Source: Candidatus Magasanikiibacteriota bacterium (GTDB lineage: Bacteria; Patescibacteriota; Patescibacteriia; Magasanikbacterales; GWA2-37-8). From it: 64,000 nt of DNA. Positions 18,129 through 57,631 of this stretch are shown here, one piece after another. Numbering within the stretch: the stretch's first letter is position 1; each line of letters starts with the position of its first letter. A program made the translations under genes and the position numbers. The notes below the pieces were generated by a model, which saw nothing but the letters and a program-made list of their open reading frames with translations, did no database searches and was not told where the DNA came from. The DNA is taken from contig DAIOHD010000001.1 of NCBI GenBank assembly GCA_036744835.1, positions 82,320 through 146,319 of the forward strand, given 5' to 3'.

Positions 18129-18220
18129 TGTCATTGCGATCCGCCGGCTGGCGGAGAAGCAATCCCACGGATTTTATATAAAATAATGAGATTGCCACGG
18201 CCTTTGGCCTCGCAATGACA
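18129..18220 (+). mobile_element. MITE-like element copy downstream of miaB
   Basis: GTCATTGCGATCCGCCGGCTGGCGGAGAAGCAATCCCACGG...GCCACGGCCTTTGGCCTCGCAATGACA. Confidence 0.7.
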
Positions 18221-18361
18221 CAAATAACCCTGCTTTTAGCGGGGTTTTATTATTGTTTAGATATAAAATCTTCCAGTTAGCATTGACAAAACTCGCTTTT
18301 TGTGCTATATTATGATGTAATTCAATTAGTACTTTAATAATAAAAATAAAAGGAGGAGAAG

Positions 18362-18751
18362 ATGAGAAGGCTAATCCTGATTACCTTTTCTGATCCGACA
18401 GATACTTGGTATAGTTCGCAATCTCGCGAATACATCAAGTATTTTTTGGAAAGGATCAAGAGTCGGTTTGGTGTTGAAGAAGATGTTGAAATCGTTATTA
18501 AATACATCAATCTTACTCCTGGCACCGAGCCTGCCCATGTACTAGGCAATTTTTTCCGGGATAAAAATCCGGAAGTAATCGGTGTGTTTGTGCAAGCTCA
18601 TAAAGTTCTCGAGATAAACAAAAAAATTTTGTTTCTCGCGGAAATTTTGAGGGAAAAACAGCATCCGATAGAGATCTTTTACTTTGAAAACAAAAAAGCA
18701 TTTATTTTGCAGTCTGTTTTTCAAGGAAAAATGGAAGGTGAAGAATTATAA
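18362..18751 (+). CDS. hypothetical protein, tandem paralog A
   Basis: 129-aa ORF. Strong RBS AAAGGAGGAG. N-terminus MRRLILITFSDPTDTWY...FLERIKSRFGV is similar to the next gene. Confidence 0.5.
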   Translation: MRRLILITFSDPTDTWYSSQSREYIKYFLERIKSRFGVEEDVEIVIKYINLTPGTEPAHVLGNFFRDKNPEVIGVFVQAHKVLEINKKILFLAEILREKQHPIEIFYFENKKAFILQSVFQGKMEGEEL

Positions 18752-18854
18752 GCCCCGCGATATTGTCGGGGCTTTGTTTTTGACAAAAATATTGCAAAGG
18801 AGTAAATTAGTAGTCTGTTCTTTTAATAAAACTTTTTTAGAGAGGGGGTGGTAA

Positions 18855-19223
18855 ATGCCAAAAGTTGTATACATTACTTTTGAAGTAGGAACGGAAGTTT
18901 TTTGGCAAGAAGACAGATTTCAAGCCGGAAGAAAAAAATTCTTTGAGATTATAAAAGGTCGTTTTGGCCTCTTGGATATCAAAGATGATTTTGAACCGGT
19001 TATTGCAATGAATCAACTTGGTTTTCTGAAATTGAAAAACGGCGAAATTTTACCGCCAGAAATGGTAGAAAAACTTCTTTCCGAGTACGGAAACAACGAA
19101 ATAGTCATTGTAGACAAATGTCAAGAAAAAGAGCTTGATGACAAAATTAAAGCTTTTATTTCAAAACACAAAAACTTCCATGCTTTGGAGGAAGTAATAG
19201 AAGACCATCATAAATTTTTATGA
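18855..19223 (+). CDS. hypothetical protein, tandem paralog B
   Basis: 122-aa ORF. N-terminus MPKVVYITFEVGTEVFW...FFEIIKGRFGL parallels the gene at 18362. Bidirectional terminator CCGCGGCCCAGTCCGCGG at 19228-19250. Confidence 0.5.
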   Translation: MPKVVYITFEVGTEVFWQEDRFQAGRKKFFEIIKGRFGLLDIKDDFEPVIAMNQLGFLKLKNGEILPPEMVEKLLSEYGNNEIVIVDKCQEKELDDKIKAFISKHKNFHALEEVIEDHHKFL

Positions 19224-19256
19224 AAAGAAACAATCCGCGGCCCAGTCCGCGGTTTT

Positions 19257-19892
19257 TTATTTCACCTCGGCAAATCTCACTGTTTTCTCAAATAATTCAT
19301 TAGCCTCGTCGGGCAAGATAACCCCGGGGGTAGAAGAAAATTTTTCTTTTTGCGGATTAAGATCGGTTAGCTCAGGAACAAAGTTTTTTTGAACTATCAA
19401 AACACCGTTTTCAGTTTGAAAATAATATTGGTCGTGGCCGCACCCTTCAACTCCTTGCGTTAACTTGTACCCTTCGCGGTCTCCGATTTTTGTTTTTTCC
19501 AAAAACCCGACCTCTTCTTTTATAGTGCCGTCGGTATTTATAAACTCTTTTAGGTATTCCCCGCCAAATTTTGTCAGAGCTCTATCAAGCGATAGAGTGG
19601 TAAAAGAAAATTTGATAGTGAGGTCTTTGAAAGTAGTGGTTGGCAGAGAATCACCCTTGAAATCACAAAAATCCGTATGAAGAAAAGTTTCTACCATATG
19701 GGAAAGAGTTATTGTCCCATTCTCATCTTTTATTGCAAAGGGCTCTAAAAGGATTATTTTTAAATCTGCAGTTTCGTAATATTTTTGTTCTATGACCCCT
19801 GGCATTGGATAGGGTTGTTCATTGGTTATTTTTAAACAACCGGAAATAAGAAATAAGGATAAAAGTAATCCAAAGAAAGATACTTTTTTCAT
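19257..19892 (-). CDS. hypothetical lipoprotein
   Basis: Signal peptide with lipobox LISGC. 211 aa. Confidence 0.5.
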   Translation of the reverse strand: MKKVSFFGLLLSLFLISGCLKITNEQPYPMPGVIEQKYYETADLKIILLEPFAIKDENGTITLSHMVETFLHTDFCDFKGDSLPTTTFKDLTIKFSFTTLSLDRALTKFGGEYLKEFINTDGTIKEEVGFLEKTKIGDREGYKLTQGVEGCGHDQYYFQTENGVLIVQKNFVPELTDLNPQKEKFSSTPGVILPDEANELFEKTVRFAEVK

Positions 19893-20012
19893 AATATTTT
19901 TTAAGGTATTAATTATTAGGTTAGTATATTCTGTCTAGATTTTTTTATCAAGACGATACCGTTGGTCAATTTTTTTTGACGAAAAAAATAAAATTGGTAT
20001 AATGGATTTATT

Positions 20013-20951
20013 ATGAAAAATAAACTTTCTAAATTGGTAGTTGTCTGCGGGCCAACTGCTAGTGGTAAAACCGACCTGACTATTGCTTTAGCCAAACAAT
20101 TTAACGGCGAAATAATTAGTGCTGATTCTCGGCAAATTTATAAGGAAATGGATATTGCAACGGCAAAACCAATAAGAGTTGAAAGTAGAAAGTTGAAAGT
20201 AGAAAGTAGCGATAACGGCGAATATTTGATAGACGATATACCACATTATTTATTGGATATAATAAGTCCGGATGACAGTTTTACACTTAGCGATTATAAA
20301 GAGCAAGCCCAAAAAGCGATTAATGAAATTATCAAAAAAGGTAAAACCCCTTTTTTGGTTGGAGGAACAGGTCTTTACATTAAAGCGATAGTAGATAATT
20401 TGGAAATCCCTAAAGTGGAGCCAAATTTAGCTTTACGAAAAGAGCTAGAAAATAAAAAACAGGAAGATTTGATTCTCATGCTTAAGGAAAACGATCCAGA
20501 TGCTTTTGAAAAAATAGATTTACAAAATCCGCGACGAGTTTTGAGAGCTTTGGAGGTTGTTTTAAGCACTGGAGAATCTTTTTTGAAACAACAGAAAAAA
20601 GGTAAGCCTCTTTATGATGTTTTACAATTGGGAATTAAAGTGGATAAAGAAAATTTACACAGTAGAATAAATAGTAGATGTGAAAAAATGATTGAAGTTG
20701 GGTTGATTCAGGAAGCTAAACGATTGGCACAAAAATATTCTTGGGAATTGCCCAGCATGAGCGGTATAGGTTACCGTCAAATGCGTGATTACATCGAAGG
20801 CAAGATGTCACTTGATGAAGCCCTTGATTGGCTTAAGATAGATACTCGGCATTATGCCAAGCGTCAGATGACTTGGTTTAAAAAAGACGAAAGAATTATT
20901 TGGATAGAAAACGAAAAACAAGCACAAAAGAAATTAGAAGAATTTTTATAA
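20013..20951 (+). CDS. miaA: tRNA dimethylallyltransferase
   Basis: P-loop GPTASGKT, DSRQIYKEMDIATAKP, overall MiaA architecture. Promoter TTGACG-TATAAT immediately upstream. Confidence 0.85.
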   Translation: MKNKLSKLVVVCGPTASGKTDLTIALAKQFNGEIISADSRQIYKEMDIATAKPIRVESRKLKVESSDNGEYLIDDIPHYLLDIISPDDSFTLSDYKEQAQKAINEIIKKGKTPFLVGGTGLYIKAIVDNLEIPKVEPNLALRKELENKKQEDLILMLKENDPDAFEKIDLQNPRRVLRALEVVLSTGESFLKQQKKGKPLYDVLQLGIKVDKENLHSRINSRCEKMIEVGLIQEAKRLAQKYSWELPSMSGIGYRQMRDYIEGKMSLDEALDWLKIDTRHYAKRQMTWFKKDERIIWIENEKQAQKKLEEFL

Positions 20952-21026
20952 AAACCCGCTCTTAGTTAAGAACGGGCCGAGTGTATAAGATTTTAACTGC
21001 TGTCTAGTATGTCGGCAGTTTTTTAT

Positions 21027-22934
21027 TTATTGTTGAATGTCTTCAAAAAATTGAGTGACTGTTTCTCCGGAATCTGCACTCTCTTCAAATAACAAAGTCT
21101 CTGTTCCCATAAAAGTCATAGTTTGCTTGGTGACAGTGTCTTCAGCGGAAATTTTGATTTTGGAAACTAGTACTTGTTGAGAAGGATTTTTCTTGTTGAT
21201 TATCAAGGAAAAAGGGAAAATCAATGTATTGATATCTCCAGGCATATTTTCTATTTTCCAAGTAATAACTTTTTCTTTTTGTTCAAAAGTCAAAACTCCA
21301 GTAGGTAAAGTTGTGGAAACAAAATCAACATCTCCATAAATTTCGGCGGTTAATTCGATATTTTTTAAAGGGTGAAAATTATTGCGTAAAATCCAAGTCA
21401 AGTCGCGCTTGTCTTTATTATCGGCGGTTTTATCGACATTTACTTTTTTCTCAAAAGTAAAATCTGAATTTATCGTTATTTTTACAGGATTGCTGATTAC
21501 GATTTTGTTTTCTTTAGCATCATCAGTAAAAGTTATTTCTGCTACGGCCGAGATAATAGACTCTTTCAAGCTAGCAAGTTTTATTTTTGAACTATCTTTT
21601 ATTGGTAGTTTTAAATCGACATTAATTTCTTGATTGGGTTTGATTTCCGTCAATTCTTTTATTTTGCTTTTATTCCAAGTAACAGTTCCATTACGTAGAT
21701 TATCGTTGATTTGTTTACCTATGATATCACCGTCAAAAGTATCTGTGATTTCTGGCCAATCCAAAATACTGACTTTTTGCAAAGCCGGTGCATCTAATTT
21801 AAGAGCCAAAGAAGCATTTTTTAACGAAGTTTTACCGGCATTTTTAAAACTAAGTGTAATATTTAGCGGGTCTCCTGGTTTGAGTCCAAAATCGCTCATT
21901 GTACCGTTGATAGCTAAATTCATAAGGTAAGCGGTACGAGATAAGGCAATTTCGTTTTCGATTTTTCCTATTTGATAAATTTGTCTAGCTGCTAAAATTG
22001 GTAAATCCAAAGAAGCAAGTAATTTGTGAGTGGTTTCTAATTCACCATTAAAACGTCCGATAAGTTTGAAGTTTTTTGGAAAATAATCGGAAGAAGTCGG
22101 GGTAATAACCCAACGATTTTCAGTATCAAGTGCCGGAGTGGCAGAAACGATAAAAAAATTATCCGGAACTTTTAAAGCTAAATACATTTTTTCCGGTACA
22201 AAATTATTTTTATTTTCTAGTTTATAGTTTATTTCAAAATCAGAGCCGTAAGCTGCGCGCTCAGGAATTTTCGAACTTAGAGTAAAGGGGGATAAAGACA
22301 CTTTTGTGTTTAAAGTTGCTATTTTCTGCATTTGAGAATTTAAATTTCCAGGTTTGTAGTTTAAGAATACTCGCCAAGAACCTTGTTGTTGTAAGGATCC
22401 AAAATTTTGTCCGGAAATATTAATTTCAGCTGAAGATAGTGCTGGAATATCTGAGAGCGACCACTCTGTGTTTCCTAGATTGTCGGCTAGAATATCGCTT
22501 TCTTTAAAAATAAAACCTTCCGGATAATTAATATTAAGCGTTACATTGTTTAGAGGGTAACTTAAATCATTAGTAATCAATATTTTATAGGTACTAGTAC
22601 CGCCAAGCTCTAATTCTTGTGGCCCTTCGATGGTTAAATTTATTTTTTCTTCAGAGAATTTTTCTCCTTGAGGAAAATAAAAAAATCCGGCCCAAGCGGA
22701 AACTGCCATTATGGAAGTGATAAATAATAAAAACAGTATAAAATGTAATAATGGATTACGACGACGGAGTTTTATTTTTTTCATGTCGGGCATTTTGCCG
22801 TTTTGGTCTTCATAAATCAAGGCGATTTTATCGGCAATTTCTTTTTGTTTGTTTTCTCCTAATTCTTTATCGAAAAAATCCCTTTTTTGTTTTCGAGGTC
22901 GTTTTGTGGATAAAATATTTTTTTTCTCAAGCAT
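21027..22934 (-). CDS. large membrane-anchored surface protein with repeated Ig-like/CARDB-like beta domains
   Basis: 635 aa. Basic cytoplasmic N-terminus, one TM (LLHFILFLLFITSIMAVSAWAGFF), long extracellular region. Co-operonic with the DUF4012 gene upstream. Confidence 0.55.
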   Translation of the reverse strand: MLEKKNILSTKRPRKQKRDFFDKELGENKQKEIADKIALIYEDQNGKMPDMKKIKLRRRNPLLHFILFLLFITSIMAVSAWAGFFYFPQGEKFSEEKINLTIEGPQELELGGTSTYKILITNDLSYPLNNVTLNINYPEGFIFKESDILADNLGNTEWSLSDIPALSSAEINISGQNFGSLQQQGSWRVFLNYKPGNLNSQMQKIATLNTKVSLSPFTLSSKIPERAAYGSDFEINYKLENKNNFVPEKMYLALKVPDNFFIVSATPALDTENRWVITPTSSDYFPKNFKLIGRFNGELETTHKLLASLDLPILAARQIYQIGKIENEIALSRTAYLMNLAINGTMSDFGLKPGDPLNITLSFKNAGKTSLKNASLALKLDAPALQKVSILDWPEITDTFDGDIIGKQINDNLRNGTVTWNKSKIKELTEIKPNQEINVDLKLPIKDSSKIKLASLKESIISAVAEITFTDDAKENKIVISNPVKITINSDFTFEKKVNVDKTADNKDKRDLTWILRNNFHPLKNIELTAEIYGDVDFVSTTLPTGVLTFEQKEKVITWKIENMPGDINTLIFPFSLIINKKNPSQQVLVSKIKISAEDTVTKQTMTFMGTETLLFEESADSGETVTQFFEDIQQ

Positions 22935-22942
22935 ATAAATTG

Positions 22943-25540
22943 TTATTTATTTTTTTCCATCAATAAACTCCAAATACCATCCCTTTTTAAGGGGGTTTCA
23001 GGGATAAAATGTCCATTTAGGGCCAAGTTACTATTTTCTCCGGAATTCCAAACAGGTTCAAAGTTTTCCGGATAAATAACCTGAGATTCAAAAGTACTTC
23101 GGGAGCCAGATTGCCTTTGTACTACTATTTGATATTGAGAAGTGATTTTATTGGAGTTTAATAAAGTGTCAAATATTTTTTTATCGGGATTTTTATTGTC
23201 AGTAAAAGCCTTGAAAGGCAATCGATAAATAAATTGAACGGTACTTTTTGTACCAGGCTCGGTGATCACCCAATTACCAAAAGCTGTTTTGCCGAACTCT
23301 TTAGTTATACGTGTACCGGATAATTCTTCAATACCTATTTCTTTTTCCCAGGAAGCTAAGTCAAGATCTTTTACCGCGCCTTTTACCGGAGCACGGAAAT
23401 ATTTTTCTTCCGGCCAAGTAAAGCCATGTGCTGAAATTATTTCACTTCCCTCAGGAACATAAAGACGTAAATAATTAATATTGGTTTGGCCATAAAAATT
23501 TTGTCCCAAAATTCCCTCGTGAATACGAGTAATGGTGACAGTATTGATTATAGTGCCGTCTTTTTCAACAAGAGATTGGTGATAAATTGATTGTTTTATC
23601 TGAGCATCACTTTTTTGACCCTGGATATTACTGTTAACTACCATTAAATAGTCTTTATCATCGGGGGTTTGTATGATTCTACCACCCCATCCAAATCTTT
23701 CGACAGCTTGTTGTGTAGCCGGAGCGGTAAAATAAACTTGAACCTCTTTTTGTATTAGAGCTTCATTTAAATTAAAAAGAAGAGGTAACGTATTTTTAGG
23801 TTCAAGTGAAAAAATCGAAGATAAAAATTGTGGTGCTAAATCCGAAATAATTTGTTTTGGTTTGTTTTCTTTTTTTTCAGATCCGTTTTCGACTATGTTT
23901 TGTAAGGAATTTAAAGCTGTTTTTTCGCTAAGAACCAGCTCTCTTTTTTCATCTGTAATCGGCCCAACCAAAGAGAGAAGTCTTTCCAAAACCGAAGAAT
24001 TTACCGCTATAACGCCGTCTAGAGTGATATTACGACTATGGCGATAAAACCAAAGCATCTTTTCTGCGGATATTTTAAAATCCGGAAACCAATTAGCGTC
24101 TTGAAATTCCCATTTTTTATTTGATAAAAATAAAGGATTTGGAGGTTCAACCAATACACTTGATTGGCCTTGTAAATCATAAGATCCTCCAGCCGGAATT
24201 TCTATTTTTTCTATTTTACCATTTTTGATATCAAGAACTGCGAAACTACCCATAAAACCTCCGGTAGCTCTAATTTCGGCTTCATTTTGAAAAACCACCA
24301 AATAGCGGCGTAAAGAAGAATTACCAAAAATTTCATTGATATTTTGACTTAAATCAGAGATATTTTTTAAATCTGATAAAAGGTTTTGAAATAGTAAGGT
24401 AAAATCTTCAAAAGCAGAGCGATATTCCAAAGGTAAAATATCGACTTTTACCTTATTCATATTTTCAAAAGCATCTTCATAATTTGGAATGGCGGATTTT
24501 AAATGAGTGGAAACAATATTTAATCTTTCCAAAGGAGAAAGTTCTTGATTGTTAGCTTCAGAAATTCCTTTGATAAGATAAGTGTTGGCTAAAGCTATTT
24601 TTTGCCCGGCTAATACCAGATTTTGTCGGCTTTGCACTTCGGATTTTAATATTGGCACTCCGGAAATGATTTTTTGTAAAATTCGGTGGCTTTGTATTTC
24701 TTCAACCGCGGTATTGAAATTTTCTAGAGCATGTACTATAGAGTTTTGGGCGACAGGTAAGTTGGCGGTCATAATAGCAGCGGTTGAATCTTGCAAGGCC
24801 ATGAATCCGCCGGTGCCACTTTGGGTTATTTTTTCAGTGCTTATCTTTAAATTGGTATAAAAAGTTCTAGTTTGCAAAGGCAAAGCTAAAATAATCAAAA
24901 TAGTCATGGTAACAGCCAATGATTTGCGCCAATTTATTTTTTCCAACGAGGAAACAAAAGAAAAAAGAGGTTTATCTGGTTTTTGAATAGTATATTCTTT
25001 ATCTTTTTTTGCTACGTTTTTAGAAAGTTTATCAACAAGAGACTCAAGATCTTCCAATTCTTTGGCAAGTTCTCCTACTAAAGAGTTAAAATTTGATATA
25101 TTTTCTTCCTTTATTGATTTATTTTCGAATTTTTCTTCAATAATATCTTTTTTTGAAAAACTAGATTCCGAAACGAAATTGATATTTGCTAAAGGAATTT
25201 TTTCTTTTGTTTGTTTATTTATTTTTTCATAAAATTTTTCCCATTCATTTTTTTCTTCCCTGGGCGAAGAATCTTCCAGAGAATGCCAGTGATTTTTTGG
25301 ATTTTTTAGATTGACTATATAGGGAGAAACGGTGTCGGAATTTTTTTGTTCCGGATTATGATAGAGAATTTTAATTTTTTTATTTACAGGTAAGGAACTT
25401 TTTATTTCTGATTTTTTTTGAGAAAGCAAAAAATCCGGACAAGTGGCTTTGTTATGTCCGGGTTTGTTGCAAAACTGGCAACGACGAAGTTGAATTCTTT
25501 TTTTAGCGCGCATGAGACTGAAAATAAACTTAAAATTCAA
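22943..25540 (-). CDS. DUF4012-domain surface protein with N-terminal CCHC zinc knuckle
   Basis: 865 aa. N-terminus CQFCNKPGHNKATC (C-x2-C-x4-H-x4-C). TM helix. The DUF4012-type motif RYLVVFQNEAEIRATGGFMGSFAVLDI is recalled from memory. Confidence 0.6.
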   Translation of the reverse strand: MNFKFIFSLMRAKKRIQLRRCQFCNKPGHNKATCPDFLLSQKKSEIKSSLPVNKKIKILYHNPEQKNSDTVSPYIVNLKNPKNHWHSLEDSSPREEKNEWEKFYEKINKQTKEKIPLANINFVSESSFSKKDIIEEKFENKSIKEENISNFNSLVGELAKELEDLESLVDKLSKNVAKKDKEYTIQKPDKPLFSFVSSLEKINWRKSLAVTMTILIILALPLQTRTFYTNLKISTEKITQSGTGGFMALQDSTAAIMTANLPVAQNSIVHALENFNTAVEEIQSHRILQKIISGVPILKSEVQSRQNLVLAGQKIALANTYLIKGISEANNQELSPLERLNIVSTHLKSAIPNYEDAFENMNKVKVDILPLEYRSAFEDFTLLFQNLLSDLKNISDLSQNINEIFGNSSLRRYLVVFQNEAEIRATGGFMGSFAVLDIKNGKIEKIEIPAGGSYDLQGQSSVLVEPPNPLFLSNKKWEFQDANWFPDFKISAEKMLWFYRHSRNITLDGVIAVNSSVLERLLSLVGPITDEKRELVLSEKTALNSLQNIVENGSEKKENKPKQIISDLAPQFLSSIFSLEPKNTLPLLFNLNEALIQKEVQVYFTAPATQQAVERFGWGGRIIQTPDDKDYLMVVNSNIQGQKSDAQIKQSIYHQSLVEKDGTIINTVTITRIHEGILGQNFYGQTNINYLRLYVPEGSEIISAHGFTWPEEKYFRAPVKGAVKDLDLASWEKEIGIEELSGTRITKEFGKTAFGNWVITEPGTKSTVQFIYRLPFKAFTDNKNPDKKIFDTLLNSNKITSQYQIVVQRQSGSRSTFESQVIYPENFEPVWNSGENSNLALNGHFIPETPLKRDGIWSLLMEKNK

Positions 25541-31274: not shown

Positions 31275-31280
31275 TTTTAA

Positions 31281-31792
31281 GTTCAAAGCGGATGGTCGCT
31301 TGGGTCGGAATACGACCCGAGAGGAAAGTCCGAACGCCTCTATCGATAAACTATTATAGACAGGCTAAAAATTAAGAATCTCTTGGTTTTTAGAGGTCTC
31401 GTTTGTCTGAAAGGTAAGGGGTAGCGGGTAACGCCCGCCGTTGCATTGGTGACAATGCAAAAGGGAAAGTGGCACAGAGACTATACTAACGAGTCCCGCT
31501 TGCGGGACGAGTTATCCCGCCCTTCTGGGTGGAAATAACTTGAAATTAATTTTTCTCGTCAAAGGTGAAAAGTGTATGAATGTCTTATATATGGGCTATC
31601 ATACTCGATTGGCAGTGATGCCAAAAACGTGCCAAACCCTGCCTGGCGCAAGAGCAATGTTTTCATTCTCAGAATGAATTCAGAAAGTTAGCTCGCAAAG
31701 ACTGGCACAGTGATGTGACCGGCAAGATAAATGACCATCTCTCTCGATTATGTCGGGACAGACGAAATTCGGCTTATAGCTTTGGATAAAAC
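31281..31792 (+). ncRNA. rnpB: RNase P RNA (bacterial type), expanded to about 510 nt
   Basis: Conserved GAGGAAAGTCCG (P4 5' strand), GGGTAACGCC, ACAGAcgAAatTCGGCTTAT (P4 3' strand). P1 pairing between CAAAGC at the 5' end and GCTTTG at about 31779. Terminator hairpin GCACCCAAAACGGGTGC + T-run at 31804-31835. Confidence 0.65.
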
Positions 31793-34082: not shown

Positions 34083-34313
34083 AGAGTATAAATGTCAAAT
34101 TCCAAATTACCAATTTCCAATCAATGACAAATATCAAATTACAAATTTTGACATTTGGATTTTGAAATTGATTTGATATTGGATATTGGAAATTTGAAAT
34201 TAATAAGTTAAATAAATAAATAAACTGTTTAAGACAGTTGTTTGAAGTCTGTCTTGAAATTAAAGTTAAAACTAAGAAGTTTGGACGTACGCGCCCGCCT
34301 GCCTAACGCCTAG

Positions 34314-39101: not shown

Positions 39102-41912
39102 ATGCAGGAAATGTTAAAAATAAAAGGAGCAAGAGTACATAATTTAAAAAATATTTCGGTAAATATTCCGAAAAATAAATTAGTTGTTATTACTGGTTTG
39201 TCTGGTTCGGGAAAATCCAGTTTGGCGTTTGATACTATATATGCCGAAGGCCAACGTCGTTATGCGGAAAGTTTATCCGCTTACGCGCGTCAATTTATGG
39301 AGGTGCGTGATAAACCGGATATTGATGGGGTGGAGGGCTTGTCTCCGACTATCGCTATAGATCAACGCATTAACACTCAAAATCCTCGTTCTACGGTTGG
39401 TACAGTAACTGAAATATATGATTTTTTGCGTTTGCTTTTTGCTCGAGCCGGTAAACAATATTGTCCGGATTGCGGAGAAGAAGTAGTATCTTATAGTTTT
39501 GGAGAAATAGTTGAAATGACAAGGGGATTGGGGAGAAAAAATAAAGAAATAACCATTTTATCTCCTTTGGTACGCTTTGAAAAAGTGGAACAACCAAAAA
39601 TATTATTGGAAAAAGTGGAACAATCCGGTTTTGATCACGTACGTGTTAATGGAAAGATAATGAAAATAAATGAACTAGCTGGTTTGGCTTTTGATCCAAA
39701 GAAAAAATATAATGTTGAAATAGTCACCGGTAGAATAAATGATATCAAAAAACAAGATCCTACAAAATGGGTAGAAACTGCCTTGGATTTGAGTAATGGT
39801 TTAGTGTATGTTGCCACTGATACGGAAGATAAGATATTTTCCACCGTCGGCCTTTGTTTGCGTTGTGGAAGAATTATGGCGGATTTGGATATTCGTAATT
39901 TTAGTTTTAATAGTCCTTTTGGCGCTTGTCCGCGTTGTACCGGTCTTGGAATTACCATGGAAGTTGACCAGACTCTGGTTATTCCAAATCCGCGCTTATC
40001 TCTTTTAGAAGGAGCCATCCAGCCTTGGACTCGTATTACTGGTAATCAAAATTATTACCAAAAAATGCTTAAAGCGGTAGGGGATAAATATGGATTTTCC
40101 GTGGAGGTTCCCGTCTCTTCACTTTCTACAAAAACAATGGACATTATTTTAAAAGGAACGGGAAAGGAATTATATGAAATAGATGATAAAAAAATAGTTT
40201 ATCCTGGAGTAATAGAGGATTTACGACAAAGACATTTACAGACCGATTCAGAATATATACGTAAAGAAATAGAGCAGTATATGAAAGAACAAACTTGTTC
40301 TTTGTGCGAAGGAAAAAGACTAAAAAGAGAATCTCTCTCGGTAAAATTTGAAGGACAAAATATTGCCGATCTATCCGAAATGAATATCGAAGATAGTATT
40401 TTGTTTTTTAAAGGAATATTAAAGAAAAACGGTTTAGCCAAAAAAACAATTGTTGAACCTATTATCAAGGAAGTTGTTATGCGTTTAGAAAATTTATCTC
40501 GAGTAGGTTTGGACTACCTCAGTCTTACTCGTTCTATGAATACCGTTTCTGGTGGGGAAGCAACTAGAGTTCGTTTAGCAACCCAATTATCTTCTGGCCT
40601 TACCGGCGTTATTTATGTGTTGGACGAACCATCTATTGGTTTACACGCTCGAGATAATCAAAAGTTGATAGACACTTTAAAATATTTACGTGATTTGGGT
40701 AATACCGTGATTGTGGTAGAACATGATGCTGCCATTATGAAAGAAGCTGACTATTTGATTGATGTCGGTCCTGGAGCTGGGGTATATGGAGGCAAGATCG
40801 TCGCTCAAGGTACTTTGAGTGAAATAAAGAAAGTTAAAAATTCTTTAACTTCGGATTATTTGTTTGGTCGAGCGGACGTTTCTGAGGATTTTGAAGATTT
40901 CAAAAGTAAAAATAATAAAGATAATAGTAAAAAAATAAGTATTATAGGTGCTCAGGGTTTTAATTTAAAAAATATTAATGTTGATATACCTCTTTCTAAG
41001 TTAGTTTGTGTAACCGGTGTTTCTGGTTCCGGTAAATCAACTTTGGTTGTTGATATTTTGGGTAAATATTTGTCTAAAACTTTTTATCGTGCCAAAGATG
41101 AGCCTGGTGTTCATAAGGAAATTAAAGGTGCGGATAACATAGATAAGGTTATTGCTATTGACCAGAGTCCGATTGGTCGCACTCCGCGTAGTAACCCGGC
41201 AACCTACACCGGGGTATTTACATTGATTCGCGATCTGTACTCTTCTTTACCGGAAAGCCGTATGCGTCGTTATGACGCTGGAAAATTTAGTTTCAATGTT
41301 AAAGGCGGCGGACGTTGTGAGACTTGTGCCGGAGAAGGATATATCCGTATTCCAATGCAATTTTTGGCCGATGTTTTTGTGGTATGTAACGATTGTAACG
41401 GCAGTCGTTATAATCAAGAAGCTTTAGATATCCATTATCATGGAAAAAATATTGCCGAAGTTTTAAAGATGACAATCGAAGAAGCCTATAAATTTTTTGT
41501 TGATCAAAGACCGATTGCCGATAAACTTAATATCTTACGACAAGTAGGTTTGGGTTATTTAGAACTTGGCCAGCCGGCCACCACCTTATCTGGCGGGGAA
41601 GCGCAAAGAATAAAATTGGCTACGGAATTAGCCAGAGCCTCCACCGGAAAGACTCTTTATATTTTGGATGAACCAACTACCGGATTGCATTTCGAAGATA
41701 TCAAAAGATTGCTTTTAGTTCTTAAACAATTGGTGGAAAAAGGAAATACAATTTTGATTATTGAACATAATCTAGATGTAATTAAAAATTCTGATTGGAT
41801 TATTGAACTTGGCCCGGAAGGCGGCAAAAGAGGAGGAGAGTTAGTAGCTGTTGGCACAGTTAAAGATATTATAAAAAATAAAAAGAGTTGGACAGGGAAA
41901 TACCTAAAGTAA
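39102..41912 (+). CDS. uvrA: excinuclease ABC subunit A (canonical, with UvrB-binding and insertion domains)
   Basis: 936 aa. Two ABC modules ([14 protein letters not shown]; [11 protein letters not shown]), zinc fingers, signature LSGGE motifs. Confidence 0.95.
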
Positions 41913-45031: not shown

Positions 45032-45037
45032 TTTATT

Positions 45038-48449: not shown

Positions 48450-48477
48450 AGTAAACAATTTTAAATTTTTAATTTTT

Positions 48478-48544
48478 GTCATTGCGAGCGGAGCGAAGCA
48501 ATCCCACAGTGGGTTCGCCACGGCCTACGGCCTCGCGATGACAC
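48478..48544 (+). mobile_element. short MITE-like element copy between nusG and rplK
   Basis: GTCATTGCGAGCGGAGCGAAGCAATCCCACAGTGGGTTCGCCACGGCCTACGGCCTCGCGATGACAC. Confidence 0.7.
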
Positions 48545-49135: not shown

Positions 49136-49161
49136 ATTTATTTCTCCTTAAATAAAATAAA

Positions 49162-49347: not shown

Positions 49348-49681
49348 AGATTTTTAAATTATTTAACCGGGTTGACCCAGTTAAATTAAATTTAGTAGCA
49401 CCCGAGTAGTTTAATTGTTGGGTTTATAAACTTTTTAACCGATTAGAGTTTAAAGTGTCCCTACAACTAAATTTTGATTTCAAAATCCCAGAGATTTTGA
49501 AATCATTTAACCGGGTGAATTTTTGGTATTTAAAAACGGCCTGTCAGCCGATTTGTATTGATATGATAACATAAGGCGGGGATTTAGTCAAGATTGGGTG
49601 TACACTCCCTGTTTCAGCTAATATTAGCTGAAAAATCCCAATGACCAATTCCCAATGTCCAATCAAATCCCAAACCCCAAG

Positions 49682-49777
49682 TGTGTCATCCTGAGTGAAA
49701 CGAAAGATCCCTTAAACACGGATTTGGAAATTAAGTTTAACTATAAGGGATTCTTCTCTACGCTCAGAATGAACCGT
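49682..49777. mobile_element. second MITE-like palindromic element family (TGTCATCCTGAG...CTCAGAATGAAC)
   Basis: Left arm GTCATCCTGAGTGAAACGAAAGATCCCTTA. Right arm is rc GTTCATTCTGAGCGTAGAGAAGAATCCCTTA. Confidence 0.55.
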
Positions 49778-49872: not shown

Positions 49873-50769
49873 ATGGAAAAAAATAAAAATGTTCATCCTG
49901 CTTATAAAGAATATGATTTAGAAATTAAAAATTCAGGAGAATTGGAAGAGGCAAAAGAGATAGTTGGTGTTTCTAGTCATGAAGAAGTTATGGAAAGATT
50001 TAATAAAGTAGAAGGGAAAGAAGAAATAAAAAATATAGAAAAAGATGAGGAAATTAAATCTTTAAAAAAAGAAATTGAAGAATTAAAATCTCAAATAGAA
50101 AAAATGAAAGAATTAGGTTTTAATCCAGAAGATAAAGAGTTTTTTCTCGACACTGAACTAGTTAAAAAAAGTTATGGAGATTTTGCTAAATTACTCACTG
50201 AAAAGATAAACGATAATTCTACTTACGCTAAAAATTTTAATGAATATTTGATAAATACTCAACCTTTTTTGGAAAAGTTAAGTGAACTTGAAGAAAATCC
50301 CCCTGGTTGGTTTCAAGTACTTCAATATCGAAAATCGTACATTTTAGGGGGTTTTGAAAAAATTAAAGATTTATTTGCTAGATCTCAAAAATTAATAAAA
50401 GAAATTTTACTAGAAACACAAAGTTTATCGGAAAATGATGAAAAATTATCTATCGAAGATTGTTATGTTAAGTTTATTGAAAAAACCATGAAAATGAATA
50501 ATTTTAATAACTTTAATAATGATGTTTTAACAAAAGTTGTAGAAAAACTCTCAAAAGATGAAAGACTTTTTGGAAAAAGTTATAATAATTTGGATTTACT
50601 TAGTAAGCAAATAATGATAGAATTGGGTAATTTTCGGAGTTGGCTAGATGATGATGGACGGGGTTATCTAAAGGATGGTGAAAGAAAAGAGATGTACCGT
50701 TTTTTCTTTGATTTTGAAAGAAAATTATTTGCAACTATGAAAAATTTGCATGTACGAGCTTTTGATTAA
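49873..50769 (+). CDS. hypothetical coiled-coil protein
   Basis: 298-aa ORF, Lys/Glu-rich heptad-like N-terminal region. No recognised motif. Confidence 0.5.
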   Translation: MEKNKNVHPAYKEYDLEIKNSGELEEAKEIVGVSSHEEVMERFNKVEGKEEIKNIEKDEEIKSLKKEIEELKSQIEKMKELGFNPEDKEFFLDTELVKKSYGDFAKLLTEKINDNSTYAKNFNEYLINTQPFLEKLSELEENPPGWFQVLQYRKSYILGGFEKIKDLFARSQKLIKEILLETQSLSENDEKLSIEDCYVKFIEKTMKMNNFNNFNNDVLTKVVEKLSKDERLFGKSYNNLDLLSKQIMIELGNFRSWLDDDGRGYLKDGERKEMYRFFFDFERKLFATMKNLHVRAFD

Positions 50770-50955
50770 TTTTTAAATATATAATTCTATAAAAAAATAA
50801 AGTAATTTAAAAAATAAAAAAACTTCGCCCAATCAGCGAAGTTTTTTGTTTGTTTTGTCAATTTTTAATTATTAATTATCAATTTCTCAAATCAGTGGGA
50901 TTGCTTCGTTTCACTCGCAATGACAGTAGTCCGTAGTCTGTAGTCCGAAGTCCAA

Positions 50956-53025
<2,070 letters not shown>

Positions 53026-53220
53026 TTATTCAATAAAGTTGCCATTATTTTATCATTTTTTCTAATAGTTAGCAAGTGGGTAAAATATTTTTTAAACTAT
53101 TTTCGAGAAGTTTAAAAATTAGTTCCCAACAATCTTTTATTTGTAAAAAAAAGCAAAGAATGATAAAATTAAGTCAATAAAAAAGTCCGTTTAGCGAACT
53201 AAAGGACAATTATTAATTAT

Positions 53221-54180
53221 ATGGATTTTTATTCGCAAAAAAATAAACTTAATCAAAGAAAGACAGGCGGTTCGGAAGACAAAATTCCTCAATTAAATGG
53301 TTTGAAAAAGAAAGGGATCGAAAAATACGAGGATCCCACGGGTGAATTTTCTAATCGTCAATTAAATTTTTCCGCTTGGTATGTAAAAAACAGAATACTG
53401 GTTTATCGTTTTTTTGTAAGTCTTTTAATCTCTTTTTCAGTAATAACTATTTTATATTCTTTACTTAGAGTGGCTTGGATTATTGTTGTGGAGATTCCTC
53501 GGGATAAAAAAATCATGGAGCAATTAGCTAGTCCTTATGACTACCAACAATTAAATAGAATTTTGGCGCCACAAAATATTTTGATTGATGAGATTCAAGT
53601 TTTTTTGGCCGGCGTTGGTAAATATGATGTTATGACTGAAATTTCTAACCCAAACACCAAACATATTATTTATTTTGATTATTATTTTTTGGTAAACGGA
53701 GCATCAACTACAAAAAAAAGTGCTTTTATTTTACCGCTTCAGACCAAACCGGTGTTGGAATACGGGCTTAATGATGCGTATGGTATAGAGTTAATCATAG
53801 AAAATTATTCCGCTAAAAGAATAAATGCTCATATTTATCCCGATCCGACAAATCATATTTTAGCGCGAGACATTTTTAGTTTAGAAAATTTTGAATTCAA
53901 AAGCGTATTACATCCGGAAGGTGCCAATGCTAATATTGTTAAATTTTCCTTGATCAATAGTAGTCCTTTCCATTATTATAATCCTGAATTTATCGTTAAA
54001 TATAAAAATAATGGTTTGACAGTCGGGGTGGCTTCGATAGTTTTGGAAAATTTTATTTCTTTACAAACCAGAGAAGTAGATTTGAGAAGTTTTGCTGACA
54101 ATCTTTTTATAAATGAACTGGAGATTGTCCCTTCTATAAATTATTTTGATCAAAGTTCTTATTTTGAACCTATAAGATAA
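53221..54180 (+). CDS. hypothetical bitopic membrane protein immediately upstream of ftsW
   Basis: 319 aa, one TM (FFVSLLISFSVITILYSLL), large extracytoplasmic domain. Stop abuts the ftsW start. Confidence 0.5.
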   Translation: MDFYSQKNKLNQRKTGGSEDKIPQLNGLKKKGIEKYEDPTGEFSNRQLNFSAWYVKNRILVYRFFVSLLISFSVITILYSLLRVAWIIVVEIPRDKKIMEQLASPYDYQQLNRILAPQNILIDEIQVFLAGVGKYDVMTEISNPNTKHIIYFDYYFLVNGASTTKKSAFILPLQTKPVLEYGLNDAYGIELIIENYSAKRINAHIYPDPTNHILARDIFSLENFEFKSVLHPEGANANIVKFSLINSSPFHYYNPEFIVKYKNNGLTVGVASIVLENFISLQTREVDLRSFADNLFINELEIVPSINYFDQSSYFEPIR

Positions 54181-54181
54181 T

Positions 54182-55276
54182 ATGTTTTCCCTGGCCAAAT
54201 TCTCAGGGAGGAGTTTTGACTGGCTACTTTTTTTGGCCGTATTTTTTCTGATTGCTTTTGGCTTGATGGCCATTTATAGCGTGGACTTATCCAGAGGCAG
54301 TGAATTGTTTTATTTTAAAAAACAATTAGTCGCTTTGTCTTTAGGGTTGTTATTATTGTTTATTGCCAGTCTTAATCAATATACATTTTTTAAAACCTAT
54401 GCCAGATGGTTTTATTTTTTTTCAATAATTTTATTGATTACGGTTTTGATTTTTGGTCAAAATATTCGTGGCACAACCGGTTGGTTTTATTTTTTAGGTC
54501 TTTCTTTTCAGCCAGTAGAATTAACTAAAGTAGGGGTTATTTTGATGCTCTCTTATGTGATTTCTAATTTTGGTCGACAATTTGAGCGGGCTAGATTTTT
54601 CTTTGGGACTTTATTATTGACATTGTTACCAATATTTTTTATTATGCTGCAGCCAGATCTTGGTTCAGCTATTTTGATAGGCGCCATCTGGTTTATATTG
54701 ATGTTTTTGACCGGAGCGCGTAAAACTTTTATTTTTGGTTTCATCTTATTATTTATTGCCATGGCGGTTTTTAGTTGGTTTTTTCTTTTTAAAGATTATC
54801 AAAAAGATCGTTTGATGAATTTTATTAACCCAACTCACGATCCGCTTGGCTCCGGTTACAATGTTTTACAATCAACCATTGCGGTTGGTTCCGGTGGTTT
54901 ATTTGGTCGGGGTTTGGGTTTTGGTTCGCAAAGCCAATTGCGATTTTTACCGGAAACACAAACTGATTTTGTTTTTTCCGTGATTGCCGAAGAATTGGGA
55001 TTTTTGGGAGTAAGCGTTCTGTTGATTTTGTTTTTGATAATTTTTTGGCGATTGATCTCATTGATTTCCAAAACCAATAATGATTTTATTGCTTTGACAG
55101 TTTCCGGGGTAGCTGCGCTTTTTTTCTCGCAATTTTTTATTAATATCGGAGCTAATGTTGGTCTTTTGCCGGTCACCGGTGTTACATTACCTTTTGTTTC
55201 TTCTGGCGGTTCTTCTTTAATGATGAATTTGTTGTTGATAGGAATAGTGGAGAGTATGGTGGAGAAGAAATACTAA
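54182..55276 (+). CDS. ftsW: SEDS-family peptidoglycan glycosyltransferase (FtsW/RodA)
   Basis: Ten TM helices and FtsW/RodA conserved loop motifs (LQPDLGSA, LPETQTDF). Confidence 0.85.
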   Translation: MFSLAKFSGRSFDWLLFLAVFFLIAFGLMAIYSVDLSRGSELFYFKKQLVALSLGLLLLFIASLNQYTFFKTYARWFYFFSIILLITVLIFGQNIRGTTGWFYFLGLSFQPVELTKVGVILMLSYVISNFGRQFERARFFFGTLLLTLLPIFFIMLQPDLGSAILIGAIWFILMFLTGARKTFIFGFILLFIAMAVFSWFFLFKDYQKDRLMNFINPTHDPLGSGYNVLQSTIAVGSGGLFGRGLGFGSQSQLRFLPETQTDFVFSVIAEELGFLGVSVLLILFLIIFWRLISLISKTNNDFIALTVSGVAALFFSQFFINIGANVGLLPVTGVTLPFVSSGGSSLMMNLLLIGIVESMVEKKY

Positions 55277-55390
55277 AATAGCAGGTAAGCTTGTAAGCTG
55301 GTAAGCAATAAAGCTAAATTTGATAATTAAAAATTAGTGATTGAAAATTAATTAAAAATTGTAAAATTAAAAATTGAAAATTTTCGTCAA

Positions 55391-57520
55391 ATGAAATTTA
55401 AATTAGTTTCTACATACAAACCAGCCGGGGATCAACCAGAGGCCATCACAAAATTAGTGAATGGTATATCTTCTGATATGCGACGACAAACTTTGCTTGG
55501 GGTGACTGGTTCGGGAAAAACTTTTACTATTGCTAATGTTATAGAAAAAACCCAGAAGCCGACTTTGGTTATTGCGCACAACAAAACTTTGGCTGCTCAG
55601 CTTTGTAATGAATTTCGCGAATTTTTTCCCAACAATGCAGTAGAATATTTTGTTTCTTTTTATGATTATTATCAGCCAGAGGCGTATATGCCTCACACTG
55701 ATACCTACATTGAGAAAGAAGCACAGATCAACGAAGAAATAGATAGACTACGTCATGCTTGTACTCAAGCGTTACTTACTCGCAAAGATGTGATAATAGT
55801 GGCATCAGTATCGGCTATTTATAATCTTGGTTCACCAAAAGAATATGAACGCACGGTTTTGCATTTGGAAGTTGGGCAAAATCTGGATCGTCGGGGTTTG
55901 ATGGCAAAATTAGTTGAAATGAAATTTGAACGCACCAATGGAGAACTCAAACGCGGAACATTTTTATTGCGCGGACAGGTTTTGGAATTGGTTCCGGTAA
56001 ATGAAGAAAAAATTTACCGCTTTGGGCTTAGTGATAAAATAGATTCCATTGAAATTTTTGATGCTTTGACTCGTAAACGAATCGGGGAAGTAAAAGATAT
56101 GTGGCTTTTTCCAGCCAAACACTATGTGGTATCGCAAGAAACTAAAAATAACGCTTTGCAAGCTATCAGAGACGAATTGAAAATCAGATATGATGAATTG
56201 ATGCGACACGGAAAATTGTTGGAAGCGGAAAGATTGAAACGCAAAACCAATTATGATTTGGAATTGATAGAACATATCGGTTATTGCAACGGGATAGAAA
56301 ATTATTCCAGATTTTTTGAAGAACGAAAAGCAGATGAACCGGCTTTTACACTGCTTGATTATTTTAATTATGGAGCAGGGGATTTCTTGACTGTGATTGA
56401 TGAATCACACGTGACTATTCCGCAATTGCGCGGGATGTTTGCGGGCGACAGATCAAGAAAAGATACTTTGATTGAACATGGATTTAGATTACCTAGCGCA
56501 CGTGACAATCGTCCGCTCACTTATGATGAATTTGATGAAAGAACCAAACAATTGATTTATGTTTCCGCCACTCCCAATGAATATGAAGTTGATTTGAGTG
56601 ATCAAGTCGTGGAACAAATAGTTCGTCCAACCGGCTTGATTGATCCGGAAGTTATTATTGCGCCTGTGACTGGCGGTAAAGTGTCATTGCGAACCCAAAG
56701 GGCGAAGCAATCCCACGATGAGATCGCCACGACCTCAGGAACGCTCAGCGTTTCCTCTGGTCTCGCGATGACAGGACTTTCCCAAATTGAAGATTTGATA
56801 ATTCGGATTGAAGATAAAATAAAAAAGAACGAAAGAACTTTGGTAACCACGTTGACCAAAAAAATGGCGGAAGATTTATCCGAATATTTGAAAGAGAAAA
56901 AAATAAAAGTTACATATTTACACAGTGATATAGAAACTTTGGAACGTATTCAAATTATCACAGATTTACGTCAAGGGAAAATCGATGTTTTGGTTGGTGT
57001 GAATTTATTGCGTGAAGGTTTGGATATGCCGGAAGTATCGCTCGTGGCGATTTTGGATGCGGACAAAGAAGGGTTTTTGCGTAGCGCCACCAGTTTGATT
57101 CAAACTATCGGGCGTGCAGCGCGTAATGTGAATGGTCAAGTGATTTTGTATGCGGATAATATTACTGGTTCTATCCAAAAGGCGATAGATGAAACCAATC
57201 GTCGTCGAAAAATTCAATTGGCATATAATAAAAAACATGGCATCACGCCAAAGACGATTGAAAAAACTATCAAAAATATTTTGGCGGATTTTGGTTTGAC
57301 TTTGAACACAGAAAAACAAAAAGGAAAATTAAGAAACAAAGCAAAAAAATTATCAGTGACTGACTTGGATTTGCTTGGCGATGGCAGACCTCTAGAAACC
57401 ATAATTAAAGAAAAAGAAAAATTAATGCGTGAAGCTGCGGAACATTTGGAATTTGAGTTGGCGGCGATACTCAGGGATGAGGTGAGGGAGTTGAAAAACA
57501 GGATACGAAATACGAAATAA
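55391..57520 (+). CDS. uvrB: excinuclease ABC subunit B carrying an in-frame approx. 31-33-aa insertion encoded by a MITE-like repeat
   Basis: Helicase motifs (GVTGSGKT, DESH, beta-hairpin, TLTKKMAEDL) and C-terminal UvrC-interaction coiled coil. The insertion is at 56683-56773. Confidence 0.9.
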   Translation: MKFKLVSTYKPAGDQPEAITKLVNGISSDMRRQTLLGVTGSGKTFTIANVIEKTQKPTLVIAHNKTLAAQLCNEFREFFPNNAVEYFVSFYDYYQPEAYMPHTDTYIEKEAQINEEIDRLRHACTQALLTRKDVIIVASVSAIYNLGSPKEYERTVLHLEVGQNLDRRGLMAKLVEMKFERTNGELKRGTFLLRGQVLELVPVNEEKIYRFGLSDKIDSIEIFDALTRKRIGEVKDMWLFPAKHYVVSQETKNNALQAIRDELKIRYDELMRHGKLLEAERLKRKTNYDLELIEHIGYCNGIENYSRFFEERKADEPAFTLLDYFNYGAGDFLTVIDESHVTIPQLRGMFAGDRSRKDTLIEHGFRLPSARDNRPLTYDEFDERTKQLIYVSATPNEYEVDLSDQVVEQIVRPTGLIDPEVIIAPVTGGKVSLRTQRAKQSHDEIATTSGTLSVSSGLAMTGLSQIEDLIIRIEDKIKKNERTLVTTLTKKMAEDLSEYLKEKKIKVTYLHSDIETLERIQIITDLRQGKIDVLVGVNLLREGLDMPEVSLVAILDADKEGFLRSATSLIQTIGRAARNVNGQVILYADNITGSIQKAIDETNRRRKIQLAYNKKHGITPKTIEKTIKNILADFGLTLNTEKQKGKLRNKAKKLSVTDLDLLGDGRPLETIIKEKEKLMREAAEHLEFELAAILRDEVRELKNRIRNTK
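56683..56773 (+). mobile_element. MITE-like palindromic element (TIR GTCATTGCGA/CTCGCGATGAC) inserted in-frame in uvrB
   Basis: Shares TIRs and the internal GAAGCAATCCCAC...GCCACGACC core with the copies at 18129-18220, 48478-48544, 57544-57631 and the partial copy at 50895-50925. Confidence 0.75.
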
Positions 57521-57543
57521 TACGAAATTACGAACCGCGTGCT

Positions 57544-57631
57544 GTCATTGCGAGGAGTGAAACGACGAAGCAATCCCACGAAGTTCAGAAAGCAGTGGAA
57601 TTGCCACGACCCTTCGGGTCTCGCAATGACA
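57544..57631 (+). mobile_element. MITE-like element copy just downstream of uvrB
   Basis: GTCATTGCGAGGAGTGAAACGACGAAGCAATCCCACG...GCCACGACCCTTCGGGTCTCGCAATGACA. Confidence 0.7.

Follow-up and report, generated by a model that had tools for sequence, protein, structure and literature searches.

We describe a family of short palindromic repeats in a 64,000-nucleotide (nt) stretch of the genome of a Candidatus Magasanikiibacteriota bacterium (assembly GCA_036744835.1, contig DAIOHD010000001.1, positions 82,320 to 146,319 of the forward strand). This whole stretch is called the window below, and its coordinates are used unless another locus is named. Bacterial repetitive extragenic palindromic (REP) sequences have been divided into two superfamilies by the unpaired tag at one end, GTAG or CGTC (Di Nocera, De Gregorio & Rocco 2013, BMC Genomics 14:522, PMC3733652). 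In all likelihood the repeats of the window are REP-type units of the CGTC/TGTC-tagged superfamily, mostly joined as head-to-head dimers in the manner of REPINs, in a Magasanikbacteria-related Patescibacteria genome. The description that suits them best is a family new to this known superfamily, in a host phylum also new to it; by dimensions and by encoded peptides they lie outside its published families CGTC-1 to -4.

Across the 64 kb there are four full copies of the type named here after its ATTGC stem, together with a half copy and a single element of a sister family. These copies and the features that locate them are as follows.

18129..18220, plus strand: copy c1, a head-to-head dimer 40 nt past the miaB stop codon (open reading frame, ORF, 16728-18089).
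18227..18253, plus strand: terminator-like hairpin and T-run, CCCTGC TTTTA GCGGGG TTTTATTATT, directly 3' of c1.
48477..48543, plus strand: copy c2, a short head-to-head dimer in the nusG-rplK spacer.
49684..49776, plus strand: sister-family dimer, head-to-head, with ATCCT / ATTCT stems (folding z-score -4.7).
50895..50925, minus strand: copy c3, a solo unit of the 5' type, 31 nt past the gyrB stop codon.
55391..57520, plus strand: uvrB, 709 aa, the host gene of c4.
56681..56773, plus strand: copy c4, a 93-nt in-frame block (G + TGTCAT...ATGACA) within uvrB.
57543..57631, plus strand: copy c5, a head-to-head dimer 22 nt past the uvrB stop codon (z -4.1).
57637..57662, plus strand: uvrB intrinsic-terminator-like hairpin and T-run, ATCGCC CCAAAA GGCGGT TTTTTGTT.

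An earlier sequence-only reading of this DNA had claimed a repeat family with at least five copies, and direct reading and a profile search both find all of them where it placed them. The nhmmer profile, built from nine copies and run on the window with filters off (--max), recovered full copies at 18129-18220, 48477-48543, 56682-56773 and 57543-57631 and the half copy at 50895-50925 on the minus strand; no further ATTGC-type copy was found in the window at E < 1. The half copy, which had been described as inverted and lying after gyrB, is a solo unit. The same profile missed the sister element, which is thus a separate family at the sequence level, and the related second family that had been proposed is real, a decayed relative with ATCCT/ATTCT stems. 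The motif GTCATTGCGA, with up to one mismatch, matches the window 12 times against 2.7 +/- 1.8 expected from dinucleotide shuffles, and ten of these matches are element arms; GAAGCAATCCCAC has five perfect matches. A generic scan for a tag, a 5-bp stem and a tail gave 19 matches against 5.4 +/- 2.4 in shuffled sequence, and every TGTC-tagged match among them was a copy already listed in the sequence-only reading.

Alignment of the copies reveals the ATTGC/GCAAT pentamer four times in each element. A unit is made of an unpaired TGTC tag, a 5-bp stem that begins with AT, a GA/GAA internal loop, a variable mini-hairpin and a CCC/CCA tail. The 5' half reads TGTC-ATTGC-GA-[variable GC-rich mini-hairpin]-GAA-GCAAT-CCCAC, and the 3' half, an inverted unit of like kind, reads GA-ATYGC-CAC-[GRCC loop GGYC]-TC-GCRAT-GACA. 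The TGTC tag is carried by all nine ATTGC-family arms (four dimers and the solo unit). Stems open with A-T pairs at positions 1 and 2 (ATTGC/GCAAT, ATCGC/GCGAT, ATCCT/AGGAT, ATTCT/AGAAT), and 5' units finish with GCAAT-CCC(AC), 3' units with an inward-facing TC or CC. The insert between the stem strands is self-complementary and 4-30 nt long; inserts of at least 9 nt fold at a mean of -4.2 kcal/mol, against -1.8 for shuffled sequence. For example, c1, which has an identical twin on Logan contig L122 and folds with a minimum free energy (MFE) of -38.3 kcal/mol (z -4.5), has the 5' unit TGTC-ATTGC-GA-[TCCGCC GGCT GGCGGA]-GAA-GCAAT-CCCAC and the 3' unit GATTGC-CAC-[GGCC TTT GGCC]-TC-GCAAT-GACA, and the solo c3 reads TGTC-ATTGC-GA-GTGAAAC-GAA-GCAAT-CCCAC. 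The sister element (TGTC-ATCCT-GA-GTGAAAC-GAA-AGAT-CCC ... GGG-ATTCT-TC-TCTACGC-TC-AGAAT-GAAC) is partly decayed: its 5' arm is TGTC-tagged and lacks one G, and its 3' tag has become GTTC (GAAC on the plus strand). Relatives and other Patescibacteria use the same frame with other stems (ATTCT/AGAAT, ATCCT/AGGAT, ATTCC/GGAAT and ATCCC/GGGAT), and the canonical CGTC-1 form is also present among them.

The sequence-only reading had seen in these elements 11-nt terminal inverted repeats (TIRs) that enclose internal boxes. The sequences exist, and the termini are inverted, matching at 9-11 of 11 positions and so not always perfectly, with one more base on each side (TGTCAT...ATGACA). Their pairing partners, however, are different. 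In c2 and c4, pentamers 3 and 4 have changed jointly (TTCGC with GCGAT in the 3' unit of c2; ATCGC with GCGAT, plus a nested hairpin, in that of c4), pentamers 1 and 2 still being ATTGC/GCAAT. A copy at L247:13831, in a related locus, has ATTAC...GTAAT in one arm only. The compensated pair ATCGC/GCGAT recurs in 11 of the 24 dimers with a non-consensus 3' arm, a count that may include a single subfamily repeatedly, and among other stem families the variable triplets are fully complementary in 9 of the 26 distinct modules (non-ATTGC modules in 2.9 Mb of loci), where chance would give 1/64. This compensation within arms means that the supposed TIRs pair with the internal boxes as the strands of unit stems. 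The element consists of two separate hairpin units joined with the tags on the outside, an arrangement found at four of the five ATTGC-type loci and in the sister family. The MFE fold pairs the element's two ends together; the single long hairpin or cruciform that it predicts is disfavoured by the compensated changes inside single arms. The expectation of structure itself was borne out by these changes and by the folds of the elements (z -2.8 to -4.7), and minus-strand folds equal or beat those of the plus strand.

Most copies occupy short gaps at gene ends. Copy c1 ends 6 nt ahead of the hairpin at 18227..18253, which was recognised by direct reading of the sequence; the hairpin's position directly downstream places c1 in the miaB 3' untranslated region. 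Copy c5 ends 7 nt ahead of the uvrB terminator, which is kept in the related loci L247, L243 and L246 whatever type of element lies upstream, and c3 sits in a convergent gap close to a bidirectional terminator at 50817-50847. The spacer copy c2 is antisense to the transcription of nusG and rplK, both on the minus strand. The N-terminal extension of L11 in the list of ORFs, which had been called spurious, is so (ORF of 164 aa, called gene of 140 aa). As a separate observation, all four full ATTGC-type dimers have the identical arm leading on the plus strand, and cumulative GC skew climbs over the whole window (1-64000); an orientation bias relative to replication is possible, though with n=4 it is not significant.

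Sites orthologous to those of the window were compared in the syntenic relatives L247 (93% identity in UvrB) and L243 (90%) and in the shorter loci L244, L245 and L246. The site within uvrB is empty in L243 and L244 (ACTGGT AAAAAAGGTGAAAAA TCACAA) and filled in the window, L247, L245 and L246 (G+TGTCAT...ATGACA); comparison of the filled-site flanks GGTAAAG|...|GGACTTT with the empty AAAAAAGGTGAAAAA reveals no duplication. Among the c4 orthologues the mini-hairpin of the 5' unit varies yet stays a hairpin (CCC/GGG, ACCTCGC/GCGAGGT, ACCCGC/GCGGGT). The nusG-rplK spacer has three states, an ATTGC dimer in the window, an unrelated palindrome in L247 and no element in L243, and again the filled site has no target-site duplication relative to the empty orthologue. 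The palindrome at the c2-equivalent site (L247 3878-4023) is a different element, TACCCCGTGAAATCCTATCGTAGATAGGATTGCCTTCGGCAATATTTCACAGGGGTGA. The gap from the uvrB stop codon to the terminator has four states: an ATTGC dimer in the window and L247, an ATCCT/ATTCT dimer in L243, a canonical CGTC-1 dimer in L245 and L246, and no element in L244, although synteny is broken at this point in L244. Solo c3 is absent from the orthologous site in L247 and L243. The sister element is the same in L247, with a homologous spacer between its units, yet inverted between collinear flanks, and the breakpoints of this inversion fall at the TGTCAT / ATGAC tags. Comparison of orthologous sites thus shows turnover between close relatives, in which the units appear to behave as non-autonomous mobile DNA; turnover and inversion at the tags together place the functional ends of the element at the tags. 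The 20 window ORFs tested, all small or unannotated, had no transposase domain, and no transposase was detected among the called genes of loci L001, L122, L243 and L247.

Where copies are shared, they are better conserved than the gene around them. With the element taken out, the uvrB coding sequences of the window and L247 are 83.8% identical, against 96.7% for c4 (56682-56773 vs L247 11292-11383) and 96.6% for the non-coding c5 (57543-57631 vs L247 12151-12239; P ~1e-4 for c4 alone and 4e-8 for c4 and c5 together). In L245 and L246, whole hairpins of the c4 orthologue have been swapped block-wise. The contrast and the block swaps point either to selection that acts on the hairpins as nucleotide sequence or to conversion among genomic copies.

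The copy within uvrB had been located correctly, and it leaves the gene unbroken. It is free of stop codons, and the 709-aa ORF reads through it as 31 residues (VSLRTQRAKQSHDEIATTSGTLSVSSGLAMT, UvrB 431-461); the protein is otherwise complete, with all Pfam UvrB domains and E = 7e-237 to solved UvrB structures. Alignment with those structures puts residues 2-428 on chain positions 4-429 and residues 464-705 on 429-659, which adjoin, so that residues 429-463 are pure insertion, at PVKG|QIDDL. AlphaFold2 predicts residues 428-461 as coil at very low confidence (predicted local distance difference test, pLDDT, ~26-33, i.e., <50), between a strand at 420-425 and a helix at 465-478. UvrB homologues give the lineage as Candidatus Magasanikbacteria / Patescibacteria. 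Among the 120 nearest of them this loop has 5 residues in 55 and more than 12 in 42 (35%), and relatives at 88-92% identity exist that lack the insert. The long loops include the c4-type element with diverged interiors, the ATTGC family translated in another frame (homologue P0050), units of the ATTCT/ATCCT, ATTCC/ATCCC and canonical CGTC-1 kinds (confirmed in DNA in L368-L370), and unrelated repeats such as PLxGG...-type peptides and low-complexity KHxNI runs. The UvrB loop is therefore a permissive site that has been colonised independently by many repeat families. More generally, 19 of 125 modules in low-GC loci lie within long open frames, among them those of a UvrA, a GatB-like protein with two hits and an RNase R-like protein of 618 aa. 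We rejected an intron or intein as the nature of the block in uvrB, which is far too small, is read in frame and has no such motifs. Separately, P0077, a UvrB homologue of 1223 aa, has the intein and homing-endonuclease Pfam domains PF14890 and PF14528, and the UvrB of this group thus hosts an intein too.

Taken together, the sites compared here show that copies persist where they do little harm, in gaps between stop codon and terminator and in one permissive strand-to-helix loop of UvrB.

The unit type extends well beyond this lineage. The exact pattern GTCATTGCGA-N(4-30)-GAAGCAATCC matches at least 120 stretches of species-representative genomes, and the 20-nt module frame is exact in more than 10 phyla. 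Among the matches listed, hosts include Bradyrhizobium, sphingomonads, Gamma- and Deltaproteobacteria and Helicobacter rodentium; Pedobacter, Hymenobacter, Chryseobacterium and Tannerella; and Anaerolineae, Nostoc, Zixibacteria, Melainabacteria, Armatimonadota and Hydrogenedentes. Among the matches listed for two other collections are the exact module in IMG/VR viral contigs and a CCCAC-tailed variant in JGI metagenomes. In the genome matches the base before the unit is mostly C, which makes the tag CGTC, and the unit is mostly followed by CCAG; GCGAAGC is the most frequent insert, and units usually come in inverted pairs with a spacer of 15-30 nt. Cultured isolates from several phyla carry the module, on plasmids in Novosphingobium, Methylosinus, Methylocystis and Halomonas, and it is also present in Helicobacter canis phage records; its occurrence in isolates and on plasmids means that this breadth is not a binning artefact. 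Neither the elements of the window nor those of 15 loci from other phyla match Rfam 15 at the gathering threshold, and at E <= 10 the segment 56600-57700 gives chance-level matches only. Literature searches with the exact sequence strings returned unrelated primer matches or nothing. As an observation apart, one viral contig (L194, IMG/VR UViG_3300035498_002011) has seven same-strand solo units within 10 kb (2397-10279), six of them inside a longer repeat of ~80 nt, ...cccctgccccgccctccgt-UNIT-ccccctcaatgtaag..., a layout that differs from head-to-head dimers.

Several results weigh against assigning the repeats to the CGTC-tagged superfamily as mobile units. The dimensions of the window unit do not fit CGTC-1 to -4 as published, and it may overlap with the "Bradyrhizobium CGTC-1 with variable loops". 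Movement is deduced from metagenome-assembled relatives by comparison only, the change of stem family at one site could be gene conversion instead of independent insertion, and no mobilising enzyme was found within these 64 kb of a ~0.9-Mb contig. Nor would a purely selfish, neutral insert be expected to be 96.7% or 96.6% identical where its host gene is 83.8%, and since neutral decay fails to predict this contrast, a function in RNA or DNA deserves some weight. One form of it, which we consider unlikely, is that the element is mainly a functional RNA, with hairpins selected as mRNA 3'-end stabilisers, processing sites or helpers of termination and a repeat family that would owe its existence to use by the host. 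The positions of c1, c3 and c5 between stop codon and terminator would suit such a role, as would the strong folds, the compensatory stem changes and the conservation of orthologous copies above flanking coding sequence, and many REPs have been argued to act as RNA (PMC3733652). Against it, c2 is antisense to its own operon, one copy lies within a coding region, the sister element has opposite orientations in close relatives, sites are empty or hold another family in relatives that share the genes, the minus strand folds as well as the plus strand or better, and an Rfam match is absent. These points fit a palindrome that acts at the DNA level, with use as RNA secondary at most.

The sequence-only reading had itself favoured a non-autonomous MITE (for miniature inverted-repeat transposable element) or a mobile, structured RNA-forming repeat. 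The structure holds, and so does mobility, as presence or absence, replacement and inversion in place; the classical MITE does not. Such an element, an insertion sequence (IS) deletion derivative whose 11-nt TIRs are bound by a DDE transposase and whose insertion duplicates the target, should have a parent IS with TGTCATTGCGAG termini elsewhere in the genome. We hold this to be very improbable. The inverted termini, the size of 65-92 nt and the differences in presence between strains all agree with it, but the duplications it implies are lacking at both sites that have empty orthologues (c4 in uvrB and c2 in the nusG-rplK spacer), and the termini pair and covary with the internal boxes of their own arm, not with the opposite end. 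Solo units exist, identical termini accompany many different stems across phyla, the window ORFs tested yielded no transposase domain, and the superfamily was published with no associated transposase (PMC3733652). As an outcome that would count against it, that reading had named a ubiquitous, catalogued REP/BIME-type repeat with no mobility signal; the element does turn out to be ubiquitous and to fall in a catalogued REP-type superfamily (PMC3733652), but a mobility signal is present. A last alternative is that the uvrB copy serves the protein adaptively, as a new domain of UvrB or a regulatory loop, and is not a tolerated passenger. Expansion of the loop in 42 of 120 related UvrBs, the good conservation of the copy between the window and L247, and published speculation on the modulation of mutation rates (PMC3733652) give it some appeal; we nevertheless grant it hardly any probability, for the insert is predicted to be disordered (pLDDT 26-33), relatives at 88-92% identity do without it, other loop inserts come from unrelated elements in different frames with unrelated peptides, and what is conserved is the nucleotide sequence, to the same degree in the non-coding c5.

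If the repeats are mobile REP-type units, as we favour, movement would proceed via single-stranded DNA in which each unit is folded. By analogy with GTAG REPs and their RAYT (REP-associated tyrosine transposase) enzymes and with IS200/IS605, an enzyme acting in trans may recognise the hairpin and cut at the tag. IS200/IS605 elements likewise leave no duplication. Copies between stop codon and terminator would be co-transcribed with the upstream genes at the mRNA 3' end, and hairpins may be kept intact by nucleotide-level constraint or by gene conversion among copies. A bolder proposal, and in our estimate quite an improbable one, is that CGTC-type units are mobilised or kept intact by a near-universal function, not by a lineage-specific transposase; candidates are the replication and repair machinery or a small, widely transferred, phage-borne enzyme. 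Such a function would explain the occurrence of the exact module frame across more than 10 phyla, viral contigs and a ~0.9-Mb genome of the candidate phyla radiation (CPR), the conservation of copies above surrounding genes, and the repeated landing in nucleotide excision repair (NER) genes, notably in one UvrB loop. Were it true, the gene responsible would be most readily identified in a minimal CPR genome whose units are actively turning over.

Since 2013 the spread of CGTC-tagged REPs has lacked an explanation, no transposase being known to accompany them. The superfamily is now seen to be present and turning over in Patescibacteria, whose very small gene repertoire leaves fewer candidate mobilising enzymes. 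The loci described here provide natural before-and-after sites (empty, filled, replaced and inverted) that define the ends at the TGTC tags, with no duplication, and the bulged-stem unit type recurs with exact sequence in many phyla and in viral contigs. For annotation, the units cause false extensions of ORFs, as with L11 here, and unexplained inserts of 20-40 residues in conserved proteins of metagenome-assembled genomes.

Other repeats occur near these elements. Just past the uvrB terminator (57661-57745, plus strand) is an extra composite palindrome of ~85 nt, CCCCTCTCTTTTTTAAGAGAGGGGTTAGAGGAG...CTCCACCCTAACCCTCCTCTTGAGGAAGAGGAGGG, which L247, L243 and L246 lack; peptides like those it would encode (LPLxGGVxGG...PxPTSPxRGG) occupy the UvrB loop of homologues P0029, P0031, P0092, P0111 and P0118. 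An A/T-rich family with CCAAT / AAATCC motifs (AAATCCCAATGACCAATTCCCAATGTCCAATC) lies at 13282-13403, 34091-34129, 49633-49684 and 59485-59620 in copies of both orientations, direct and inverted, with up to 93% similarity; one of them adjoins the sister-family element, and similar low-complexity peptides (KIQNPKSKTNPNSKFQ) occupy the UvrB loop of P0080. The RNase P RNA (RF00010, 118.9 bits; 31280-31792, plus strand) is oversized, with 513 nt against a model of 367 positions and insertions of 96 nt near 31366-31461 and of ~51 nt in the P12 region. We rejected a repeat copy as the source of its length, the insertions being unrelated to the element. Two genes for UvrA-like ABC ATPases (39102-41912 and 59697-62300; 936 and 867 aa) are found in this one 64-kb stretch of a small genome, and their shared Walker and signature regions account for the direct-repeat families D1, D2, D5, D7, D13 and D15.

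Among known systems, the dimers resemble the REPIN/RAYT systems, reportedly described by Bertels and Rainey in 2011 as doublets of GTAG-tagged REPs, in having two inverted hairpin units and a spacer, in forming populations within a genome, in leaving no target-site duplication and in persisting at orthologous sites. They differ in their tag, which is TGTC and not GTAG, and no RAYT or other Y1 transposase was found among the 20 small or unannotated window ORFs tested. Neisseria dRS3 elements, which serve as phage and IS integration sites in that genus, have the same frame of tag, AT-initiated stem and CCA; their stem is continuous, unlike that of the window units. The canonical form, ATCCCCGC-GAAG-GCGGGGAT, is found in L245 and L246 at the site of the window's c5. 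The Rickettsia palindromic elements (RPEs) are likewise small palindromes that sit in frame within essential genes of a reduced genome and add surface residues, and c4 also reads in frame, leaves the ORF open and falls in a surface loop, as structure comparison and prediction indicate. RPEs belong to a different host phylum, differ in stem sequence and in peptide (SFPRKRES / VIPAKAGI, against VSLR..KQSH...LAMT here), and in the case of RPE-1 are longer (100-150 bp). In the published classification, RPE-4 is CGTC-4, RPE-6 is CGTC-1 and dRS3 is CGTC-1 (PMC3733652).

The closest comparison is with the CGTC superfamily itself. Its repeats are described as often having TGTC for a tag, stems that nearly always open A-T, A-T, a 3-nt tail that is mostly CCA, and a predominance of head-to-head dimers 20-100 bp apart; they lie close downstream of ORFs, with several families per genome and no transposase known to be associated (PMC3733652). 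Within genes, copies cluster in uvrABCD, recBCD, polA and dnaE2, with two of them in the uvrB of R. conorii, and the authors speculate that insertions in repair genes may modulate mutation rates (PMC3733652). The window units agree with this description in tag, AT start, tail, dimers and position, in intragenic, in-frame copies in NER genes including uvrB and in the coexistence of families. The families CGTC-1 to -4 have a continuous stem of 8-9 bp with a loop of 4-5 nt; the supplement's peptides imply ATTCCCGC-GAAA-GCGGGAAT for CGTC-1, ATTGCCGGG-CTTGA-CCCGGCAAT for CGTC-3 and ATTCCGTGG-CTTGA-CCACGGAAT for CGTC-4 (PMC3733652). CGTC-3 shares the outer ATTGC...GCAAT stem with the window units, which differ from all four families in their 5-bp stem, GA/GAA internal loop and insert of 4-30 nt, and a GA/GAA loop with a variable hairpin does not appear in the published peptides VIPAKAGI, VIAGLDPAIH and VIPWLDHGI. 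On this comparison of dimensions and peptides we do not assign the units to CGTC-1 to -4. The authors themselves note that bulged units may have slipped past their search (PMC3733652). Their account covers five phyla, Patescibacteria not among them, and reports intragenic copies at differing positions within one class of gene, in contrast to the one UvrB loop hit repeatedly here; in the later literature we found no paper that names a CGTC transposase or these repeats in Patescibacteria. Beyond the 2013 description, our analysis adds a bulged unit type that spans phyla and viral contigs, a recurrent hot spot in one UvrB loop, inversion in place, and conservation above that of the host gene.

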